Made by a program: the position numbers and the translations under genes
DNA from: an uncultured Chloroflexia bacterium
GTDB taxonomy: Bacteria; Chloroflexota; Chloroflexia; Chloroflexales; Herpetosiphonaceae
NCBI GenBank assembly: GCA_963767035.1
Contig: CAVYBW010000001.1
Span: 2,246,547-2,310,546, forward strand
Direction: 5' to 3'
DNA: 64,000 nucleotides
Notes under the pieces: generated by a model
The model's database searches: none
Seen by the model: only the letters and a program-made list of their open reading frames with translations
What the model was told of the DNA's origin: nothing
Shown here: piece by piece, positions 9,003 through 41,120 of the stretch
Position numbering within the stretch: the stretch's first letter is position 1
Layout: each line of letters starts with the position of its first letter

Positions 9003-11435
9003 ATGACCCGAGAAAAAGACCGCCCTCGTACAGGAACCGAGCGCACTTTACCACTGGTGGTATTGGGCGAAATTGTGATCATGCCGCACATGACTGTGCC
9101 GCTCCAGGTTGGGCAGGGCAAGTCTTATCGGGCCATGGAACAAGCGATGGAAGATGATCAACACGTTTTGTTGATCTTTGTTTCCGAGGCCGAAATTGAA
9201 GCCTACAAAGGCCACGAACCCCAACAATTACCCAATGTTGGCGTGGTCGCTCGCTTGGAAGATTTCTCCCAATTGCCCGATGGCACGGTAAAAATTGTGC
9301 TGGAAGGGATTACCCGCGCTGAGATTGTTGATTGTGTTCAGAGCGACCCCTTCTATCGCGTAGCGTGCCGCTACTTGCCCGACCAAGAACCAAAAGGCAT
9401 CGAAGTCGATGCCTTAATGGATACGGTCAAACAACAAATTACTGAATTTGTCGATTATTTAGGCGAAATTCCCCAAGAAGCTGTTGCTTTTGTGCATCGG
9501 ATTAATACCCCTGGCCACTTGGCCGACCTTGTGACCTACGGCCCAGCCTTCTCGTTCCAAGATCGCTTGGAATTGTTGAATGAGGCCGAACCATTGGCAC
9601 GCTTGAATCGGGTGCAAGTTATTTTGGCTCGTCAATTAGAGTTGTTACGACTCCGCGCCAAAATCCAATCCGATACCAAAGAAGTCTTGGATCAAGGCCA
9701 AAAAGAGTATTTCTTGCGCGAACAAATGCGGGTTATCCGCCGTGAACTCGGCGAAGACGACGATGGCGATGATCCAATTGATGAATTGCGCCGCAAAGTC
9801 AATGAACTGAATGCACCGCAATATGTCAAGGATCAAGCCTTGCACGAAATTAAGCGCTTGGCCCAACAAGGCATGAATTCGCCTGAAGCAGGCGTGATTC
9901 GCACCTACCTCGATTGGATTATTGCCCTGCCATGGAACACCAATCAAGTTGCGGCGATTTCGTTGGTCCAATCGCGACAGGTGCTCGACGAAGATCACTA
10001 TGGCTTGGAAAAAGTCAAAGAACGAATTTTGGAATATCTGGCGGTGCGCAAGCTCGCTGGGAGCAAAATGCGTTCGCCAATCCTGTGCTTCGTTGGCCCT
10101 CCCGGCGTGGGTAAAACCAGCCTTGGTCGCTCGATTGCCCGGGCCTTGGATCGACCATTCGTGCGCCAATCGTTGGGCGGCGTGCACGATGAAGCCGAAA
10201 TTCGTGGTCACCGCCGCACCTATATTGGCGCAATGCCAGGCCGGATTGTGCAAGGCATGAAAACCGCCAAATCGCGTCAAGCTGTCTTTATGCTTGATGA
10301 AATCGATAAGATTGGCAATGATTTCCGTGGCGATCCAACCTCGGCACTGTTAGAAGTGCTTGATCCAGAGCAAAACAATACCTTCTCTGATCACTACTTG
10401 GAAATTCCGTTTGATCTGAGCCAAGTGGTGTTTGTGGCCACCGCCAACCAACTCGAACCAATTCCTGCGCCACTCCGTGACCGCATGGAAATTATCGAGA
10501 TTGGCGGCTACACCGAGGATGAAAAACTAGCAATTGCCCAAGGCTTCTTGTTGCCTAAGCAACGTGAGTTCCATGGCCTCGAAATTAGCCAATTGGAATT
10601 AACCGATGCTGCGATCTTGAAGCTGATTCGCGAATATACCCGCGAAGCTGGCGTGCGTAACCTTGAGCGTGAAGTCGCGGCCTTGTGTCGCAAAATTGCC
10701 CGCAAGGTAGCTGAATCGCAGGATGAAGAAGCGCTACAAGAAGGCAAGAAGCGTCGCAAGAAGGCCAAAAAAGTTGAGCTGGCTAAATTCGTGATTGATG
10801 CAGCCGATGTGCCAACCTACCTTGGCCCTGAGCACTTCAGCTTTGGCATGGCCGAAGTTGCCGACCAAATTGGCGTGGCAACTGGAGTGGCTTGGACGCC
10901 AACCGGCGGCGATATTCTTTCATTCGAAGTCTTGCCATTGACTGGCAAAGGCGAATTACGCCTGACTGGTCAATTGGGCGATGTGATGAAGGAATCGGCG
11001 CAGGCTGCGATGTCGTATGTGCGCTATCGCGCCAAAGAATTGGGCATCGAGCCAAATTACTTTGACGAGCATTCGATCCATATTCACGTTCCTGAAGGCG
11101 CAGTGCCCAAGGATGGCCCTTCGGCAGGGATTACCTTGACGATTGCCTTGATTTCAGCTATGACTGGTCGCGCCGTTCGCCGTGATGTGGCCATGACTGG
11201 CGAAGTCACCTTGCGTGGACGGGTCTTGCCAATTGGTGGCTTGAAAGAAAAAACCTTGGCAGCTCATCGGGCAGGGATCAAAACTTTCATTTTGCCCAAG
11301 GAAAACGCTAAAGATATTGTTGATCTGCCTGAAAAAGTGCGCCAAGATCTGCAATTGATTCCGGTCGAAACCATGGACGAAGTGCTGACAATTGCATTGA
11401 TGCCGTTTATTCGCCAAGACGTTATCGCCAGCTAA
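9003..11435 (+). CDS. lon: ATP-dependent Lon protease.
   Basis: Lon N-domain. Walker [16 protein letters not shown]. Catalytic Ser in [10 protein letters not shown]. Catalytic Lys region AHRAGIKT. Length 810 aa. Confidence 0.95.
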
Positions 11436-11454
11436 ATCAGGCTTAGCTTGATCA

Positions 11455-11497
11455 AAACGCCCCTCTCCTTACAATAAGGAGAGGGGCGTTTTTTTAA
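11455..11497 (+). terminator. Rho-independent terminator of lon.
   Basis: aaaacgcccctctcctt-acaataa-ggagaggggcgttttttt: a GC stem followed by a T7 run. Confidence 0.85.
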
Positions 11498-11794
11498 ATT
11501 ATGAAGGATGAGGGATGAAACACAAAGAACATAAAAGGTAATAAGGCTATAGACGATTAGCTAAACGATTGATAAAGCATCCAAGATTGTTCCGATAGCT
11601 CAAAGCCAATAGCCGCTCTCTACGCCGCTGCGTTGACCTATCTTTAATTTTAAAACGAAGATTCCTCATCCCGCATCTTTCATTTATCCGCGCCGCTGCG
11701 TTAAAGCCAGATCCTCGATCCCTAATCCCTGACTCCTATTGTTATGTTCTAGACTCTCTGTTCTTCATCCTTCATCTCTCATCCTTCATCCTTA

Positions 11795-11841
11795 AAAAAA
11801 GCTTCCCCCACAAACCCGTAGGTTCATGAGGGAAGCAAGCA
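11795..11841 (-). terminator. Putative terminator downstream of nuoN.
   Basis: On the minus strand: gcttccc...gggaagc stem followed by ttttttt. Confidence 0.4.
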
Positions 11842-11851
11842 ACAATTTGAA

Positions 11852-17870: not shown

Positions 17871-18048
17871 GGACACTCCCAGATAAAGGATGAAGGATGA
17901 GGGATGAAATTCAAACCCTGTTGGCACGCCCTTCACACTTCGGACCGTTGGCTACCTTGAAATCTAAAGTACAAACTGGGCGTTGAGAGATGCAATTCAG
18001 CCTCGATCAGCCCATCCTTCATACTTCATCCTTCACACTTCATACCTT

Positions 18049-18555
18049 TTATAGGTCTATTTGGGCCGGTGGGTTAAGTTGTTTGCCGGTTTGTTGCAAA
18101 ATTGGTGGCACTTCGCCATGACCTTTATCAACCGCAACCAATAACATATCTTGGGTATAGATCGAAGCGCGGCGGTCGTAGAAGGCCAATTCATATTGGT
18201 GCTCTAGCACAATTGCATTGGTGGGGCATGCATCTTCGCAGTAGCCACAGAAAATACAACGTAACATGTTAATTTCATACACAGCAGCATGGCGCTCACC
18301 TGCTGAACGCGGATTAGCCGGATCGTTCTCGCCAGGCACAACATAAATCGCATCAGCTGGACAAGCTGCGGCACACAGCGAACAACCAATACACCGCTCT
18401 AAACCGTTGGCAAAACGCTTCAGTTCATGCCGACCACGGAAGCGCTCGCGGACAGGTCGTTTGACCTCAGGATATTCAACGGTCACAGGCTTTTTGAAGA
18501 GATATTTCGCCGTGGTTTTGAGACCCTTAAAATAGGCCATCGTTCCTTTCAGCAT
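18049..18555 (-). CDS. nuoI: NADH-quinone oxidoreductase subunit I (2x[4Fe-4S] ferredoxin).
   Basis: Two CxxCxxCxxxCP motifs: CIGCSLCAAACP and CIFCGYCEDACP. Confidence 0.9.
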   Translation of the reverse strand: MLKGTMAYFKGLKTTAKYLFKKPVTVEYPEVKRPVRERFRGRHELKRFANGLERCIGCSLCAAACPADAIYVVPGENDPANPRSAGERHAAVYEINMLRCIFCGYCEDACPTNAIVLEHQYELAFYDRRASIYTQDMLLVAVDKGHGEVPPILQQTGKQLNPPAQIDL

Positions 18556-20164: not shown

Positions 20165-20312
20165 GGAGCATAATCCTTACTCATTTATTGATACTATATA
20201 TCATTATAATCGATTTTCGAATTCGTAAAACAAGATTTGACAAAAATACAAAAGCAGAGTATACTTCAGCACTGTTGAACGGCAACAATGCCCAAAACAA
20301 ACAAATCAATAA

Positions 20313-20388
20313 TCCCTGATAGCTCAGTTGGTAGAGCGGTTGACTGTTAATCAGCATGTCCTAGGTTCGAGTCCTAGTCAGGGAGCCA
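20313..20388 (+). tRNA. tRNA-Asn (GTT).
   Basis: Cloverleaf: acceptor TCCCTGA/TCAGGGA, anticodon loop CTGTTAA, encoded CCA, 76 nt. Confidence 0.9.
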
Positions 20389-20407
20389 CTTTTTTACAAA
20401 TCAATAA

Positions 20408-20483
20408 TCCCTGATAGCTCAGTTGGTAGAGCGGTTGACTGTTAATCAGCATGTCCTAGGTTCGAGTCCTAGTCAGGGAGCCA
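20408..20483 (+). tRNA. tRNA-Asn (GTT), second identical copy.
   Basis: Identical 76 nt. A 95-bp tandem duplication includes the upstream caaatcaataa leader. Confidence 0.9.
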
Positions 20484-21994: not shown

Positions 21995-22050
21995 AATGTG
22001 CGTTCCCTCACCCCCCCCAACCCCTCGCCCACTGGACGCGGGAGAGGGGA
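21995..22050. repeat. GC-rich palindromic (REP-like) element.
   Basis: tccctcaccccccccaacccctcgccc-actggacgc-gggagagggga. The same family recurs at 35851-36048. Confidence 0.7.
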
Positions 22051-25234: not shown

Positions 25235-25639
25235 GATTTCTCCTCAGACAATACATTTGATGATTTGGTTGATATTCTCAATCAACCGCTGGTACTACGT
25301 GCAATTGAAGCTTTGGTTGCGCCATCCTGGCTTCAGGCCACGATTTTTTAGCCACATATTGACACAGATTATTGGGATTATGCTTGCTGCATTAAGCCAA
25401 AGCTTGCATAACGCTGCGCTGCTGCGTTATTAATGAAATCATTTTTTAGCTCCGAATTCCACAAATTATAGTTTCATCCCTCGTACTTCACAACTCTGCA
25501 CCACTGCGTTAAACTAAAATCCGCTTTTTAGCCACGAGAATTGCCCGAATTACCCAAACCATGTTCCGATAGCCCATAGCCCTCAGCCAAAAGCCATAAC
25601 GTTCCTCATTCATCCCTCATCCTTCATCCCTATAAAAAA

Positions 25640-25700
25640 CTGCTGCTTGACTCTATAGCATAGTATAGGGTTTATGCTAAGCAGCAGAAAGGAATTGAGC
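25640..25700 (+). promoter_or_regulatory. Putative MerR promoter/operator.
   Basis: ctgctgctt...aagcagcag inverted repeat flanking TTGACT-ctatagcatagtataggg-TTTATGCT. The long spacer is typical of MerR-type promoters. Confidence 0.35.
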
Positions 25701-25701
25701 G

Positions 25702-26505: not shown

Positions 26506-27768
26506 CTAATCGCGAACGTGACCAGCGCCGCGTACAACCCATTTATACGAGGTTAGTTCGCGCAACGCCATTGGGCCACGGGCATGCAATTTTTGGGTGC
26601 TGATCGCAATCTCAGCGCCCAAGCCCAGTTGTGAGCCATCGGTGAACCTGGTTGAGGAGTTGGCATAAACCACCGCCGAATCAACTTCGTTCAAAAAGCG
26701 CTCAATCGCCGCAGGGTCTTGCGATAAAATTGTGTCGGAATGGTCGGTGCCATACTGATCAATATGCTCAATCGCTTGATCAAGCCCATCGACCACTCGC
26801 ACTGCTAGGATTAACGCCGAGAACTCTTGGCCAAAATCATCGGGTTGGGCCGCCACTAAATTCCAATCAGCGCTGCCAGATTCACGTAAAATTGCCAACG
26901 CTTCAGGATCACAACGCAATTCGACCTTGTGCTCTTGCAAGGCTGCGCCAACCCGTGGCAGGACTTTGGCGGCTGCACTGCGCTCGACCAACAACGTTTC
27001 GAGCGAATTGCAAACGCTTGGGCGTTGCACCTTGGCGTTGATGATGATCGGCACAACTTGCTCTAGTGGCGCTGTATGGTCAACATAGGCATGGCACACG
27101 CCAATTCCGCCAGTAATAACGGGAATAGTAGCAGTTTGGCGGCAAAAAGTGTGCAAGCCCGACCCACCACGCGGAATAATCATATCCACGTAGCGATCCA
27201 AGATCAGCAGGCCACGCACCAATTCGCGATCAGGATTATCGATCAATTGCAAGGCATCAGCCGGTAAATCAACCCGTTCTAGGGCACGGCGTAAAGCTTG
27301 CACTAACGCCCCAGCCGAACGAGTGATTTCCTTGCCGCCACGCAAAATCACCGCACTGCCAGCTTTGATACACAAGGCCGCCACATCAGCGGTGACATTT
27401 GGTCGAGCTTCGTAAATTACGCCGATCACGCCCAGCGGCACACGGCGTTTTTCCATGCGCAAGCCATTGGGCAACACGCCCTGCTCAAACACTTCACCAA
27501 GCGGATCAGGCAAGACTGATACCGTGCGTACATCGTTGGCAATCGCTTCAAGCCGTTGTTCGTTGAGTAATAAGCGATCAAGCAAGGCTGGCGTTAATCC
27601 AGCTTCGCGCCCAAGCCGCATATCAGCATCGTTGGCCGAAAGAATCGATTCGCGATCAAGGCTTAGTTCTTCGGCCATGGCCTCGACGGCGGCATTACGT
27701 TGAGCTGTGGTTGTGCGGGCCAAGATTCGGGCTGCCAGCTTTGCACGCTGACCCATTGCCTCAAGCAT
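26506..27768 (-). CDS. proA: Gamma-glutamyl phosphate reductase.
   Basis: 420 aa in the aldehyde-dehydrogenase fold. Catalytic Cys region. Genomic context with proB. Confidence 0.9.
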
Positions 27769-27790
27769 CGGACACTCCTCATACTAGCCA

Positions 27791-28486
27791 TCATAACTCG
27801 CCAAGTGGGGCTGCCGGATGATCTTCGCCTTCAAGATTGCCTTCGAGTTGCCAACGTACTGCGGCATGCAAATGCACAGCATCGTTGTAGCCACCCAGAA
27901 ACCAGCGCATCTGCCCACCGCGTTCATGCTGATACCAATGGGTCAACGATGTATTGGTCACTTCTAGGTCAATATTCGGTTGCTCGCTGCGGCTATGTGG
28001 CCAAAAATAACTTAACGATGATTCTATCACCCAACCATGGCAAACAATTGCAATCGTGGCATCGGGGTTGGCATTCAGCACTCGTTCAAAATTGCTGTGG
28101 GTGCGCTGGCAAAAGGTTTGCCAAGTCTCGCCACCAGGCGATAAAGGCTTGCGCAAATCAAAATCAAACTTGCCATAGCGGGCATTATATTCTTTCCAAG
28201 ACAGGCCATCGGCCTCGCCAACATTGAATTCACAAAAGGTTTCGTCGTAGATTAAGGCTTGGGCAAAGGCCGGAGCAATAATTTCGGCGGTTTGCATCGC
28301 CCGTGGCATCGTACTACAGATAAACAGATCGGGCACAATTTCCCGGGTTGCGATCAGCCGGTCGCGCAAATGCTCAGCTTGCTGCACACCCAAAGCTGTC
28401 AAGCCACGATCACCCTTAATGCCACCAATAATTGGCTCAACATTCACCACAGCCTGCCCATGGCGAATCAAATAGAGTTTAGCCAT
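27791..28486 (-). CDS. Histidine phosphatase (phosphoglycerate mutase-like) family protein.
   Basis: MAKLYLIRHGQAVVN RHG motif at the N-terminus and a catalytic His in VCHGW. The ORF track's extension to 28576 reads through the repeat array. Confidence 0.75.
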   Translation of the reverse strand: MAKLYLIRHGQAVVNVEPIIGGIKGDRGLTALGVQQAEHLRDRLIATREIVPDLFICSTMPRAMQTAEIIAPAFAQALIYDETFCEFNVGEADGLSWKEYNARYGKFDFDLRKPLSPGGETWQTFCQRTHSNFERVLNANPDATIAIVCHGWVIESSLSYFWPHSRSEQPNIDLEVTNTSLTHWYQHERGGQMRWFLGGYNDAVHLHAAVRWQLEGNLEGEDHPAAPLGEL

Positions 28487-28563
28487 AATACCCCTTTCTA
28501 CAATGATGAAGGATGAATTCTCATTCCTCAAATAATCACATCTTTTTAGAAATAAGCAAAAAT

Positions 28564-28654
28564 CCTCATCCCTCATCCCTCATCCCTCATCCCTCATCCC
28601 TCATCCCTCATCCCTCATCCCTCATCCCTCATCCCTCATCCCTCATCCCTCATC
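28564..28654. repeat. Perfect heptanucleotide microsatellite (CCTCATC)13.
   Basis: 13 uninterrupted copies. It supplies the last codons (D-E-G) and the TGA stop of proB, and lies about 80 nt upstream of the phosphatase start. Confidence 0.95.
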
Positions 28655-29752
28655 CTTAACAAAGGCCACCATATCATCGCGGTGAATCACTTCATCGCCA
28701 TAAGAATACCCAAGGATACTTTCGATATCACTGGTACGTGAGCCTTTGATTTGAGCAACTTCGTGAGCCGCATATTGGCATAAACCACAGGCAATCGCTT
28801 GACCGTCGGGGGCAACAATCGCTACAGTTTGGCCGCGTCGCCATTCGCCTTCAACCGCCACAATCCCTGCTGGCAAGAGGCTTCGGCCTTGCTGGGTTAG
28901 GGCTTGCACCGCGCCTGCATCGACCGCAATATGCGCTTGGCGCACCCGTTCAGCCATAATCCAGCGCTTGCGGCTCTCTAGGCGGGTGCTCACTGGCCGA
29001 AAACGGGTGCCAACACTCTCGCCAGCGGCCAAGCGTAGCAACACATCAGGCTCGTTGCCAGCAGCAATTACCATGGTTGTGCCAGCACGGGTCGCCAATT
29101 CGGCAGCTTGAATTTTGGTAAACATCCCGCCAGTGCCACGATGCGAGCCAGCGGCCCCAGCCAAAGCATACACCTGTTCATTCACCGCTGCCACATCGTC
29201 GATCAGCGTTGCCGCAGGGTTATGGCGTGGATCGGCGCTATACAAACCAGCAATATCACTCAAAATAACCAATAGCTGAGCGTCAACCAAATTTGCTACC
29301 AAGGCCGAGAGCGTGTCGTTATCACCGACCCGAATCTCATCGACTGCGACTGCATCGTTTTCGTTGATAATTGGCAGCACGCCAATTTCCAAGCAAGTCA
29401 ACAAGGTTGCGCGGGCATTCAGGTAGCGCACCCGATCGCGCAGATCGGCGCGGGTCAGCAAGGTTTGAGCAACTGGCACATCGTAAATTTCAAATAATTG
29501 GCCATAGATATGCATTAAACGGCCTTGACCAACTGCCGCCAGCGCCTGCTTGTGGGTCAGCTCGCGTCGCCGCTTGGGGAAGCCTAAGCGCTCCCAGCCT
29601 GCTAAAACCGCACCTGAAGAAACCAACACGACTTCATGGCCAACAGAGCGCAACTGCGCCATCTGGCGGGCCAAATCGACCATGCGCGGGCGATGCAAAC
29701 GGTCGGTGCCATCGGTCAAAACGCTCGTGCCAAGTTTAATTACAATTCGCAT
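28643..29752 (-). CDS. proB: Glutamate 5-kinase with a C-terminal PUA domain.
   Basis: MRIVIKLGTSVLT amino-acid-kinase N-terminus, and 369 aa in total. Confidence 0.9.
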   Translation of the reverse strand: MRIVIKLGTSVLTDGTDRLHRPRMVDLARQMAQLRSVGHEVVLVSSGAVLAGWERLGFPKRRRELTHKQALAAVGQGRLMHIYGQLFEIYDVPVAQTLLTRADLRDRVRYLNARATLLTCLEIGVLPIINENDAVAVDEIRVGDNDTLSALVANLVDAQLLVILSDIAGLYSADPRHNPAATLIDDVAAVNEQVYALAGAAGSHRGTGGMFTKIQAAELATRAGTTMVIAAGNEPDVLLRLAAGESVGTRFRPVSTRLESRKRWIMAERVRQAHIAVDAGAVQALTQQGRSLLPAGIVAVEGEWRRGQTVAIVAPDGQAIACGLCQYAAHEVAQIKGSRTSDIESILGYSYGDEVIHRDDMVAFVKDEG

Positions 29753-29840
29753 AGCAAAGCTCTATTCACAAAGATTATTACAACTAGCTATTTTAACGCC
29801 TAGCTCCAAATTGGTTTTAGCCGAATCACAAAAGCTGCGT

Positions 29841-30085
29841 TTTAAAACCACGAAGAGCACGAAGGGCACGAAGAACGAAACCGCGAAGCACACGAAGATC
29901 GCGAAGGCTGAATTTTTTAGCCACAGATGATCACTGATGAGAATGATGGATAAACCTAGCATTGGCCGATTAGGTATTGGGTTTCATCCCTCATAATTCA
30001 TCCTTCATCCTTATTTTCTGCCTTTTGATTTTGCCTTTTGTCTTCTCTTATGTTCTATGCTCTTTGCTCTATGTTCTTAAAGCAA
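29841..30085. repeat. Mosaic intergenic repeat built from modules B (CACGAAG), A (TCATCC) and D (TTTTGCCTTTTG).
   Basis: accacgaagagcacgaagggcacgaag...tttcatccctcataattcatccttcatcc...ttctgccttttgattttgccttttgtc. The same modules recur at 25440-25640, 33951-34240 and elsewhere. Confidence 0.8.
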
Positions 30086-30141
30086 CAGGCCATGGAGCAC
30101 CAACACTCCACGGCCTGCGAAAAGTATGATTATGTCAATGG

Positions 30142-33100
30142 CTATTTTTTACCAACGGCTTGCGCATGGGTATGCTTGACCGCCAAAATCGCCTCAAGCT
30201 CGGCTTCTTTGCCCGGCACGCCGTGGCACGCTTTGAACTTCTTGCCGCTATCGCAAGGGCACGGATCATTGCGTCCGATTTTGATCACAATCCGGCGGGC
30301 TGGTGCTGCCTGACCTGCGGCATTGCTGACGCGGCGCGCCGCGCCACCAACACCACGCTTGGCTGGCTTAGGTGCTTCTTCAGTGGCGTTTTCCGAGCCA
30401 CCAGCAGTTTGTGCCATTGCCAAACGCGCTTCCATTTCAAGCTCAACTTGGCGCAAGCGCACTTGCCAGTTGGCAGCATTCATGAAGAAGTTGTAGACAA
30501 TTCGGTTTTGGATGTTGCCTTTGAGTTCATCGAACATCTTGAAGGCTTCGCGCTTGAAAGCGACCAACGGATCTTGTTGGGCAATCGCTACGTTGCCAAT
30601 ACCTTGGCGCAATTCATCAACCGCTGTTAGATAATCAATCCATTCGCGATCGATTGATCCAAGCATTTCTTGGCGCTCGAAGTGAGCAAAGAAAGCTTCT
30701 GGGCCGCTAACGCCAGGAATTGGCTGCACGCCCCGTTGCAACAAGCCAGTATATTGGGTTGCCAGCTCTTGGCCCAAACGATTGTAGGCTTCTTCAACAA
30801 CTTCGGTCGCAATTTCGCCAATTTCATCAGCTTGGCGGCCTTTGAAACGCGCAGCCAATTCGGTTTCTTGAGCTTTGAGTTGTGGCACAATTGCATACAA
30901 CTGGCGCAAGAAACCTTCCATATCAGGCTGATCAAGCTCTTTGTTGTCGAGGAAATCTTCGACATGGGCATCAATTTCGTCAACCACCATCTCAAGGATG
31001 CGGTCGCCCATATCTTCGCCGCCAAGAATCGCATGGCGGTCGGCATAGATGACTTCGCGTTGCTTATTCACCACGTCGTCGTATTCGACCACATGTTTCC
31101 GCACGTCAAAGTTATAGCCTTCGACCCGGGTTTGGGCGCTTTCGATCGCTTTATCGAGCAAGCCCGATTCAAGTGGCAATTCTTCCTCGCCATCGGACAT
31201 GCGCTCCATCAGTCGTTTAATCGTGTCAATTCGTCCGAAGCGGGTCATCAATTCGTCTTCAAGTGAGATGAAGAAGCGCGATGAGCCAGGGTCGCCCTGA
31301 CGGCCAGCCCGACCACGTAACTGATTGTCGATCCGGCGAGCTTCGTGGCGCTCAGTCCCGATGATGTGCAAGCCGCCAGCTTCCATCACAGCCTTGCGTT
31401 CGGCATCGACATCGGCTTTGGCTTTGGCAGTCGCTTCGGCCAATTGCTCAGGCGTAGCTTCGGTGATGGTCGTGCCAAGAGCTTTAAGATGCTCCTCGAC
31501 CAAACCATCGGGATTACCACCAAGCAAAATGTCGGTACCACGACCAGCCATGTTGGTTGCAATCGTGATTGCGCCAATCCGGCCAGCTTGAGCCACAATA
31601 TAGGCTTCACGTTCGTGCTGTTTGGCATTCAACAGATAGTGTTCAAGCGCTGATTGATTCAGCAAGTTGCTGACAATTTCTGAGCTTTCAACTGAGGTTG
31701 TACCGACCAACACTGGGCGACCAAGCTCATGCATCTCTTTGATTTCGCGCAACACGGCGTTGTATTTGGCTTTTTGCGAAGCATAAATATGGTCGCGATA
31801 GTCTTCGCGTACCACTTGACGATTGGTTGGGATAATCACGACTTCCAAATTGTAGATTTTGCTAAATTCTTCAGCTTCGGTGACCGCCGTCCCAGTCATC
31901 CCACCAAGTTTGTTGTACATACGGAAGTAGTTTTGGAAGGTGATTGTTGCCAAAGTGACGTTTTCGCGGCGCACTTCAACCGCTTCTTTGGCTTCAACTG
32001 CTTGGTGCAAGCCATCCGACCACCGTCGGCCAGGCATTGTCCGCCCAGTAAACTCATCGACGATCACGACTTCGCCGTTTTGCACAACATAATCAACATC
32101 ACGATGAAAAACATATTCGGCCTTGAGCGCGTTTTCCAAGTAGTGAGTTAATTCGAAGTTCTTGGCATCGTACATGTTCTCGCCATCGGGCAAGTTGAGG
32201 CGTTTTTCCATTACCTCTAAGCCCGATTCGGTCAAGGTAATCGAGCGCGATTTTTCGTCGATCCAATAATCGCCGTCAAAATCGTCTTTGATGCCTTTGC
32301 GCACTTCATCAGGCGAGATGCTTGAGCGCTTCAGGCCACGCACCAACGATGAAAAGCGGCGATAGTTATCGCTGGATTCTTGGGCTGGGCCTGAGATAAT
32401 CAACGGAGTACGGGCTTCGTCAATCAAAATATTGTCAACTTCGTCAACAATCGCATAATGCAATTCGCGCTGCACACATTGATCTTTATGCTGTACCATG
32501 TTATCGCGCAGATAATCGAAGCCATATTCATTGTTTGTCCCGTAGGTCATATCGGCCATATAGGCTTCGCGGCGTGAGCAAGGCCGCCAGTGCACCAAAC
32601 GGCTATCATCTTGTTTGGCGTTGGGGTCGATATAATTGGGGTCGTAAATCGCTGAATAATCGTGGGCGATGTAGCCAGTGCTCATGCCAAGGCTATGAAA
32701 AATTGGCCCCATCCAACCACCACCAACTTTGGCGAGGTAGTCGTTGACGGTAACCAAGTGTGCGCCACGGCCTGGGATTGCGTTGAGGAACAAGGGCAAG
32801 GAAGCCACCAAGGTCTTGCCTTCACCAGTCTTCATTTCCGCAATTCGGCCTTCGTGCAGCACAATCCCACCGATCATTTGGACATCGTAGTGACGTTGAC
32901 CAATGACCCGACTTGAGGCTTCGCGCACAAGGGCAAAGGCTTCGGGCAACAATTCATCAAGCGCCGAATCTTCAATCACCCGTAATTCTTTTTGATACTC
33001 TTTTTCGACTGTCGAATCGTGGCGATTTTCGTCGGCATAGCTGTCGTCGAGCGCTTCACGATCCGCTTTGGTAAGCTCTGCGAACCGTGTGCGTAATTCA

Positions 33101-33240
33101 GCCGTTTTTTCACGGAGTTGTTCATCGCTAAGAGCCTTGAATGTTGGCTCAAGGGCGTTAATTTCATCTAAGGTTGGCTGCATTTTCTTCACAACCTTAG
33201 CGTTGGGGTCGCCCATTAGTTTCCCAAGCCATTTAAACAT
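30142..33240 (-). CDS. secA: Preprotein translocase ATPase SecA.
   Basis: [22 protein letters not shown] start with GAGG RBS. DEAD-motor motifs. C-terminal Zn finger [14 protein letters not shown]. Confidence 0.95.
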
Positions 33241-33343
33241 GTGGTACCTCGTGGTGTCTGAATATCGGCAGCACGGCTGCATCGCTAGATTATACCACGC
33301 AGCTTTGGCGCTTTGAATGGCTTAAAAGCTGCTTAACAAAATG

Positions 33344-33919: not shown

Positions 33920-33950
33920 AATTCCTCCAACAATCAATTCTCAAGTTGAT

Positions 33951-34240
33951 CCACGAAGGGTACGAAGGGCACGAAGGCTGGCGATGGGCTATAGGCAGAA
34001 GGCTATTGGGAATATGGTTGAGCCACGCATTCCACGAATTATGGTTCTATTCCCAAAACTTGAAAATTTATACCTCTGCACCTTTGCGTTGAAGGTTTGA
34101 TCCACGAATTATGTTGATTATGTTCCAATAGCCGATAGCCTTCAGCCAAAAGCCCTCTGTTCTATGTTCTATTTTACCTTCTGATTTTGCCTTCTGACTT
34201 TAATCTTCATCCCACATAATTCATCCTTCATACTTTCAAG
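33951..34240. repeat. Mosaic intergenic repeat (modules B, C, D and A).
   Basis: gatccacgaagggtacgaagggcacgaagg; ccaatagccgatagccttcagccaaaagcc; ttctgattttgccttctgac; cttcatcccacataattcatccttcat. Confidence 0.8.
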
Positions 34241-35843: not shown

Positions 35844-35850
35844 GATTCCC

Positions 35851-36048
35851 TCACCCCCAACCCCTCGCCCAGGCTATGGGCGAGGGGCTTTTTCGTTCCG
35901 TGGTATTGCCATGCACCATGTACGCCACAGGTGCTCCCCCTCGCCCGCGTTCAGTGGGAGAGGGGGCTGGGGGGGTGAGGGAATCTCTGGAAACTCCCCC
36001 TCGCCCGCGTCCAGTGGGAGCGGGGGCTGGGGGGTGAGGGAACCACAC
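35851..36048. repeat. Three tandem GC-rich palindromic REP-like elements.
   Basis: ccctcacccccaacccctcgccc-loop-gggcgagggg units, each a long hairpin. They lie between convergent NmrA and rhodanese gene ends. Confidence 0.8.
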
Positions 36049-40680: not shown

Positions 40681-41120
40681 ATCCGATCCACGAAGGACAC
40701 AAAGAGCACGAAGAATTACTATTTGATCCACGAAGGACACAAAGAGCACGAATGGTTGGCTCTTGCGATCTGTAAAATTCATAGGCAATTAACATGGTGA
40801 TTGTGAATTTAACGAACTAAGCGTTTCCATTCCAACTTGCCAAGACTGCCGAACTTAATCAATAGCCCAACCCGAAGTTGCACCAACTCCAATGCAAGGG
40901 CTTCTTGATAAACAGCCTCTAAGAACCCACTACCCAACTCGCGATGAACCTCAATTGCAGCCCCTACAATCGCGAACACTTCATCTGCCAAAAGAATCGT
41001 TGCCATCCACGCCTCCCAAAAATAGTTAGTTGGTTCCAAATTACTAGATACACAAACCAACTATTTTTGGGATGACACAAAAAACATGCTTCGTGTCCTT
41101 CGTGCTCTTCGTGAATCAAA
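40681..41120. mobile_element. Putative MITE-like insertion carrying a GxxExxY ORF, bounded by inverted module-B repeats.
   Basis: The left end has 2x gatccacgaaggacacaaagagcacgaa (40685-40752). The right end, 41091-41118, is the reverse complement built from the same words (ttcgtgtccttcgtgctcttcgtgaatc). It sits in the 454-bp sufS-sufD spacer. Confidence 0.4.
40809..41060 (-). CDS. GxxExxY-family protein, short form (N-terminal part only).
   Basis: GFLEAVY matches the G-x-x-E-x-x-Y signature. 83 aa, shorter than typical family members. Confidence 0.5.

Follow-up and report, generated by a model that had tools for sequence, protein, structure and literature searches.

What is a long, perfectly regular heptamer array doing at the 3' end of a glutamate 5-kinase gene, and can its length switch the genes around it? 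The question is raised by the window, the whole 64-kb stretch of Herpetosiphon DNA (64,000 nucleotides) analyzed here, in which a regular-expression search finds 13.0 perfect CCTCATC units at positions 28564-28654. On the minus strand, which carries the genes, the array reads (GATGAGG)13 and contains 12 GGG tracts with AUGA between them. TRF reports the same tract (28564..28655, period 7, 13.1 copies, 100% matches, 0 indels), confirming the perfect 13-unit array described in an earlier note on this DNA. It is the sole perfect run of at least three copies at any period from 5 to 15 in the window, and a perfect period-7 tract of 91 nt cannot have originated by chance.

The array lies within a group of four genes, all encoded on the minus strand: secA (30142..33282); proB, encoding a 369-aa glutamate 5-kinase (28643..29752; TIGR01027, E=1e-144); a gene for a 231-aa histidine-phosphatase family protein starting MAKLYLIRHG (27791..28486; NCBIfam His-phosphatase superfamily matches); and proA, encoding glutamate-5-semialdehyde dehydrogenase (26506..27768; NF001221, 6e-172). 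Since proA follows the phosphatase gene after only 22 nt, proB, the phosphatase gene, and proA probably form one operon, and their order is kept in all relatives recovered. The 3' end of proB reads GTT AAG GAT GAG GGA TGA, that is, V K D E G stop, and the codons for D, E, and G together with the TGA (28654..28643) fall inside the array, drawn from its first 1.7 units. From the end of the array to the ATG of the phosphatase gene (28486..28484) we counted 77 nt. Both the array-encoded D-E-G and stop of proB and the distance of about 80 nt to the phosphatase start had been proposed in the earlier note, and both agree with the sequence.

Three further elements lie in the spacer between the array and the phosphatase gene, all on the minus strand. 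The core AUUUUUGCUUAUUUCUAAAAAGAUGUGAUUAUUUGAGGAAUGAGAA (28518..28563) is locus specific, occurs as a single copy within the window, is kept in array-type relatives, and is predicted to form an inner hairpin. It is followed by an inverted heptamer arm, UUCAUCCUUCAUC (28505..28517), recognized from RNA folds and from equivalent arms in relatives, and then by a Shine-Dalgarno-like AAAGGGG (28491..28497), which lies unpaired 3' of the predicted hairpin. A promoter and terminator scan of the spacer on the gene strand returned no sigma-70-like promoter and no intrinsic terminator, and an Rfam scan of 27500-30500 returned no family, only a chance-level snoRNA match (E=0.46). We also noted an extended -10-like sequence, TGTGATTAT, at 28532..28540 (minus strand) in the conserved core 3' of the array, with TGTGAATAT as its counterpart in relatives. 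This sequence may act as an internal promoter for the phosphatase and proA genes, in which case the array would lie upstream of a promoter as well as in the 3' region of proB.

Repeat number and the coding sequence

Does a change in the number of 7-nt units alter any protein at this locus? Within 21 nt, (GATGAGG)n brings a TGA into each of the three frames, and for proB the stop comes 11 nt into the array. When the locus was rebuilt in a simulation with 0 to 26 units, every version with 2 to 26 units gave an identical 369-aa ProB ending VKDEG*. A single unit gave a 625-aa ProB-phosphatase fusion, and removal of all units gave a 371-aa protein. In the same simulation, the frame that is open ahead of the phosphatase start stayed constant at three or more units. 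Since no frame stays open through the unit, array length leaves ProB unchanged; the expectation in the earlier note that slippage would alter the ProB C terminus is therefore wrong.

Two open reading frames that overlap the array were rejected as genes. One is a 261-aa version of the phosphatase with its start inside the array; stop codons in relatives interrupt the extension, and the gene calls of the relatives are 231 aa with PF00300. The other is a 48-aa frame on the plus strand (28513..28659) made of (PHPSSLI)n repeats, a by-product of the C-rich strand, which contains no stop codon at all. Some annotators are likely to miscall a gene there.

Variation of the spacer among Herpetosiphon genomes

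Relatives of the locus were recovered through a 90%-identity ProB cluster, which consists of Herpetosiphon species, together with exact look-ups. Over proB-phosphatase-proA, the window shares at most 88% identity with every other genome recovered, meaning that it represents a separate Herpetosiphon species. Within the genus, the ProB C terminus is dimorphic, ending either ...DDMVAF* (364 aa) or ...DDMVAFVKDEG* (369 aa), with a VKDEL* tail in one genome. The two lengths are explained by the repeat, which donates both the VKDEG tail and the stop codon to the longer form.

The array itself differs in length in every genome that carries it. Against the 13 pure GATGAGG units of the window, Herpetosiphon sp. 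NSE202 (L086) has 9 units plus 1 degenerate unit, followed by the same AUUUUUG flank as in the window; H. giganteus (L087) has 5 units plus 1 degenerate unit; and a draft of H. llansteffanensis (L085) has 3.6 units, an insertion, and then 2.6 more. Draft short-read assemblies may understate such copy numbers; two short-read (Logan) contigs break inside the array. Three further genomes or contigs (L210, L211, and L212) carry a mixed four-unit module, GATGAAG GATGAGG GATGAAT TATGAAG, and retain VKDEG*. H. gulosus (L089) shows a decayed relic. The array is absent from the H. aurantiacus type (L082 and L083) and from the complete H. llansteffanensis genome (L084), which have an unrelated spacer that places TAA after AF and contains AGGCAAA-type heptamers. 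Length variation, which the earlier note proposed to look for between strains, was seen here between species, from 13 units down to none. The U-run 3' of the array is conserved in the window, L086, and L087. Judging by the sequences compared, the pure array is an expansion of one unit of the short mixed module.

The spacer between proB and the phosphatase gene thus occurs as two unrelated alleles, one at L082:5108-5285 and L084:5090-5320, the other at window 28487-28660 and in L085-L087, L089, and L210-L212. The first has TAA right after AF and AGGCAAA/TTTGCCT arms; the second is of the VKDEG* type with GATGARG/YTCATCC arms. Each brings in a stop codon of its own and begins directly 3' of the codons GCC TTT. 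In a tree built from the flanks, both alleles are found in both major Herpetosiphon clades, and they differ even where the flanking genes are 95 to 96% identical. The spacer turns over much faster than the genes do, and the distribution of its alleles suggests that it is exchanged by recombination or repeatedly replaced. A separate change was seen in H. giganteus, where a tandem duplication of ~61 bp (L087:5236-5358) just 5' of the phosphatase gene takes in an ATG along with the Shine-Dalgarno sequence and the inverted heptamer arm, creating a second, out-of-context start site.

Predicted RNA structure and the dispersed repeat family

How would such an array behave in a transcript? Folded alone without quadruplex terms, it gives 0 kcal/mol; with G-quadruplex (G4) terms in ViennaRNA it gives -25.1 kcal/mol and three tandem predicted quadruplexes, in line with a G4 motif found by motif search at 28570..28649 (minus strand). 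The 201-nt spacer gives -39.9 kcal/mol without G4 terms and -54.8 kcal/mol with them, and without these terms the full 201 nt fold no better than shuffled sequences (z=-1.3). For the last three units together with the spacer, the prediction is a bipartite hairpin with a folding energy of -25.4 kcal/mol (z=-2.5), a value reached by 3 of 200 shuffles. In this fold, UUCAUCCUUCAUC (28517..28505) can pair with any two adjacent array units over 13 bp, including 2 G-U pairs, leaving the Shine-Dalgarno sequence free. The short right arm can pair with only about 2 of the 13 units.

In relatives, a long predicted helix closes the whole spacer in both unrelated alleles. It joins a purine-rich heptamer arm that starts from the stop codon to a complementary arm ending just 5' of the phosphatase Shine-Dalgarno sequence. 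The folds of L082 (minimum free energy [MFE], -54.0 kcal/mol; z=-3.4), L084 (MFE, -57.8 kcal/mol; z=-2.7), L210 (MFE, -60.7 kcal/mol; z=-5.5), and L086 (MFE, -69.0 kcal/mol; z=-4.2) were each matched by 0 to 2 of 200 shuffles. Significant folds are thus confined to the distal part of the window spacer and to the spacers of the relatives. In these models, what is conserved at the locus is a hairpin that spans the spacer and has inverted heptamers as its arms, and neither a given sequence nor a given length. Two spacers without common sequence at one locus thus preserve a predicted spacer-closing hairpin.

The array is one member of a dispersed family. In the window, period 7 alone is enriched, with 7 segments compared to 0 to 1 at the other periods from 5 to 11, and 6 of the 7 are intergenic. 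Even when the array is masked, no hexamer is more frequent in intergenic DNA than GGATGA/TCATCC, at 2.99/kb compared to 0.40/kb in coding DNA (7.5-fold), in agreement with the proposal in the earlier note that TCATCC is the shared word of a dispersed family. The further proposal, that the array arose by expansion within this family, is also supported, since the short mixed module of the relatives sits exactly at the proB-stop position. Most GGATGAR arrays in the window have their G-rich strand as the sense strand and lie just 3' of a stop codon, as is seen behind secA, behind the stop at 18049, immediately behind that at 34228, and behind the convergent genes whose ends are at 11435 and 11852. 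In some cases (17880-17909), a C-rich arm in inverted orientation precedes the next start. The dispersed GGATGAA members mostly have no GGG tracts, so the G4 capacity may be incidental to the GATGAGG variant.

Intergenic DNA of the window also holds mosaics of short arrays, composed of GGATGAR, TTTTGCC, TATGTTC, and ACAGAGC heptamers and the 9-mer CACGAAGRG. Serial heptamer mosaics (GGATGAR, AAAAGGC, AGAACAT/GAGCATA, and ACAGAGC) occupy 29753-30141, 33938-34227, 25235-25701, and 11436-11851. The same long mosaics contain the recurring motifs CCGATAGCC...AGCCAAAAGCC and TTAACGCAG(C/T)GG(C/T)G, and look like a composite dispersed element of ~250 to 300 bp. The 9-mer CACGAAGRG forms a second dispersed intergenic family (29849-29906, 33952-33977, 40689-40752, and 41089-41113), of which the last two arrays are inverted arms, 94% complementary, around ~350 to 385 bp. 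Four further canonical G4 motifs lie at 35848-36040 and 22005-22030; three of them cluster within 200 bp in a divergent gene gap (~35844-36047), and the window has 5 G4 loci compared to 0.9 ± 0.8 in shuffles. Elsewhere, a perfect 95-bp tandem duplication (20301-20483) carries two identical tRNA-Asn(GTT) genes (20313-20388 and 20408-20483).

Beyond Herpetosiphon, an exact search for (GATGAGG)5 returned at least 120 metagenome contigs. The 80 examined (L090-L169) range from 37 to 74% GC and carry 5 to 15 perfect copies. In these contigs, a frame of at least 200 codons touches the 5' edge of the array on the G-rich strand at 68% of loci; the share is 11% for the C-strand side and 32% for random positions. 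Usually the array abuts the stop of a gene in the same orientation. Several of these genes end ...DEG* within the array, and the genes adjoining it are of housekeeping types, such as those for CysRS, sigma-54, an ABC permease, AsmA, and an amidohydrolase. An inverted CCTCATC partner lies downstream at 15 of 48 metagenome loci. One contig (L143) belongs to Candidatus Promineifilum, of the Chloroflexota class Anaerolineae, and another (L153) to the Pyrinomonadaceae of the Acidobacteriota. When the seeded arrays were masked, the metagenome contigs still showed 90 period-7 segments compared to at most 9 at any other period from 4 to 12. The recurrence of GGGATGA on the sense strand beside stop codons in bacteria so distant from one another is the part of these results most worth pursuing.

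Explanations for the array and comparison with known repeats

The explanation that we favor, and consider likely, is that the array is a slippage-expanded GGATGAR module at the proB stop, neutral for coding, that would provide a hairpin arm and a G4-capable surplus and whose function, if it has one, would be structural. Slipped-strand mispairing would have lengthened the short mixed module, and the array would probably be transcribed within a proB-phosphatase-proA message. Its last units would act as the 5' arm of a hairpin, with the inverted heptamer arm just 5' of the phosphatase ribosome-binding site as the partner, and the surplus units could fold into up to three tandem quadruplexes. Such a structure might be a barrier affecting mRNA processing or stability, might attenuate read-through, or might set G4 and hairpin in competition with each other. 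Directly observed here are the identity of the array, its variability, its coding neutrality, its family membership, and the structures that folding programs predict for it. If the phosphatase and proA genes depend on array length at all, the dependence would be graded and would act through RNA structure.

The earlier note suggested a possible contingency (phase-variable) locus; on that reading, 7-nt slippage would switch the ProB C terminus or turn the phosphatase and proA genes on and off. In its favor, the perfect tract is long, its unit is not a multiple of 3, and its copy number varies between genomes, and the Haemophilus influenzae hmw locus demonstrates that an intergenic heptamer repeat is able to control expression (PMC12721329). 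The evidence at this locus speaks against it. ProB is identical at two or more copies, and at three or more the frame ahead of the phosphatase gene does not change. No promoter hexamers were found around the array, so promoter elements neither flank nor span it, and 91 nt is far beyond any -35/-10 spacer; the invariant ProB, the lack of a detected promoter, and this excessive length together exclude the two standard contingency mechanisms. The genes beside the array (proB, the histidine phosphatase gene, and proA) are housekeeping genes and not surface, host-interaction, or restriction-modification genes, arrays lie 3' of housekeeping genes in other phyla too, the repeat family adjoins many unrelated genes, and phase variation was judged unlikely for this class of repeats by Rehm et al. 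(PMC4692102). An on/off switch is very unlikely, and we regard the contingency reading as a whole as highly improbable. The repeat at the proB locus is real and variable yet unable to switch ProB, and it does not belong in a list of contingency genes. An assembly artifact, with the tract or its copy number in error, is more improbable still, to the point of being negligible: short-read assemblies do break at the tract, but it appears at the same site with the same flanks in independent assemblies of at least five genomes, and the window's protein maps to a 3.69-Mb contig, indicating a contiguous assembly.

Other alternatives give the spacer a life or a function of its own. It might be a mobile or recombining inverted-repeat element resembling a MITE or REP, with the 13-copy tract as an overgrown terminal repeat and the hairpin as a by-product. 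Such an element would account for heptamer arms occurring as inverted pairs at several intergenic sites and for the downstream inverted partner in 15 of the 48 metagenome loci, as well as for two unrelated alleles that start after GCC TTT with a stop of their own, are both represented in the two clades, and distinguish genomes with flanks of 95 to 96% identity. The arms are dispersed but the inner core is single copy within the 64-kb window, which weakens a simple MITE model, and Rehm et al. found no association with mobile elements for sister repeats (PMC4692102). We consider this reading unlikely, and it is compatible with the slippage-expanded structural module, as the two are not mutually exclusive. 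A somewhat less probable alternative is a dedicated cis-regulatory element, in which AUUUUUG comes after a G4 that forms on the nontemplate strand and in the nascent RNA. Placed between proB and the genes downstream of it, such an element would attenuate transcription or block ribosomes or RNases, and copy number would act as a rheostat. A series of 12 consecutive sense-strand G3 tracts separated by 4-nt loops, the U-run shared by the window, L086, and L087, the sense-strand orientation bias across taxa, and the presence of GAGG, AUG, and UGA in every unit (13 of each in the array) all speak for it. Against it, relatives manage with 0 to 4 units or an unrelated spacer, implying that no particular length is required, most family members are unable to form a G4, and the spacer scan detected no terminator-like site. 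A broader claim would make GGGATGA arrays a post-stop-codon element shared by the Chloroflexota (classes Chloroflexia and Anaerolineae) and the Acidobacteriota, with a selected function in 3'-end formation, mRNA processing, or translational termination-reinitiation inside operons and with length as a heritable, tunable rheostat for downstream cistrons. It draws on the sense-strand placement, the frame-closing TGA, the repeated GAGG-N7-AUGA, the G4 capacity, and the frequent inverted partner, and for the present we hold it to be doubtful.

How does the array compare with repeats already described? Literature searches for the exact repeat sequence and on Herpetosiphon tandem repeats found nothing relevant. 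Among well-known elements, REPs and BIMEs are dispersed inverted repeats that lie between cistrons and form hairpins in polycistronic transcripts; REPs, which RAYT transposases mobilize, are imperfect palindromes with a fixed sequence. The GGATGAR arrays resemble them as dispersed intergenic inverted repeats that are predicted to fold into hairpins, but the arms here are tandem heptamers in variable number. The TAACTGA intergenic heptamers of Beggiatoaceae, Cyanobacteria, and Bacteroidetes (MacGregor 2015; PMC4679880) likewise involve one tandem heptamer in scattered bacteria and a unit with stop codons (TAA and TGA). They lie a few nucleotides upstream of start codons, usually in 2 to 6 copies, whereas GATGAGG arrays abut the stop of the upstream gene. 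The cyanobacterial STRR heptanucleotide repeats of Calothrix and Nostoc, as they are cited in PMC4692102 (its ref. 39), and the excess of prokaryotic heptamer simple sequence repeats that Mrazek et al. 2007 (its ref. 33) are cited there as ascribing to polymerase slippage, share with the present case tandem intergenic heptamers of several types and an excess at period 7; the STRRs consist of specific cyanobacterial units in heterocystous cyanobacteria, while the host here is Herpetosiphon and the unit is different.

The best functional analogue, similar in geometry only, is the (ATCTTTC)n heptamer in the 5'-UTR of H. influenzae hmw1A and hmw2A. There, the transcribed repeat is the left arm of a hairpin processed by RNase III, and expression is inversely proportional to repeat number, a control that requires RNase III (Rapun-Araiz et al. 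2025; PMC12721329). At the proB locus, an intergenic heptamer array of variable length is predicted to form the left arm of a hairpin whose right arm lies upstream of the phosphatase gene. The hmw genes encode surface adhesins, whereas biosynthetic genes are involved here, and only about 2 of the 13 units can pair.

The closest class is that of the G-rich heptamers described by Rehm et al. 2015 (PMC4692102), with GGGAATC in Xanthomonas and GGGGA(C/T)T in Nostoc, in 2 to 26 units. These repeats form G4 in vitro, are intergenic and on the sense strand, abut stop codons, and are mostly transcribed; they flank housekeeping genes, vary in length among related species at the same gene pair, and in some cases have inverted copies able to form stem-loops, and their function was left unresolved (PMC4692102). 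The proB array shares with them a 7-nt tandem unit with a run of at least three G, here with G4 predicted from sequence; dispersal and overrepresentation in noncoding DNA, here seen within the 64-kb window; co-oriented open reading frames with the G-rich strand coding and the repeat within 50 bp of or overlapping a stop, the proB stop being inside the array; and variation in length and sequence between genomes at the same gene pair. It differs in its unit, GGGATGA rather than GGGAATC or GGGGA(C/T)T, in its hosts, which are Chloroflexota and, in metagenomes, Acidobacteriota, and in the content of the unit, since GGGATGA contains TGA, ATG, and GAGG, closes three frames, and can donate a stop and a ...DEG tail. 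By position and by structure, the latter with G4 as a prediction, the array can be assigned to this class with a new unit. This little-studied class is thereby extended to the unit GGGATGA and to new phyla, and Herpetosiphon, whose natural alleles at a single operon range from 0 to 13 copies, would be a convenient genus in which to test what such repeats do.
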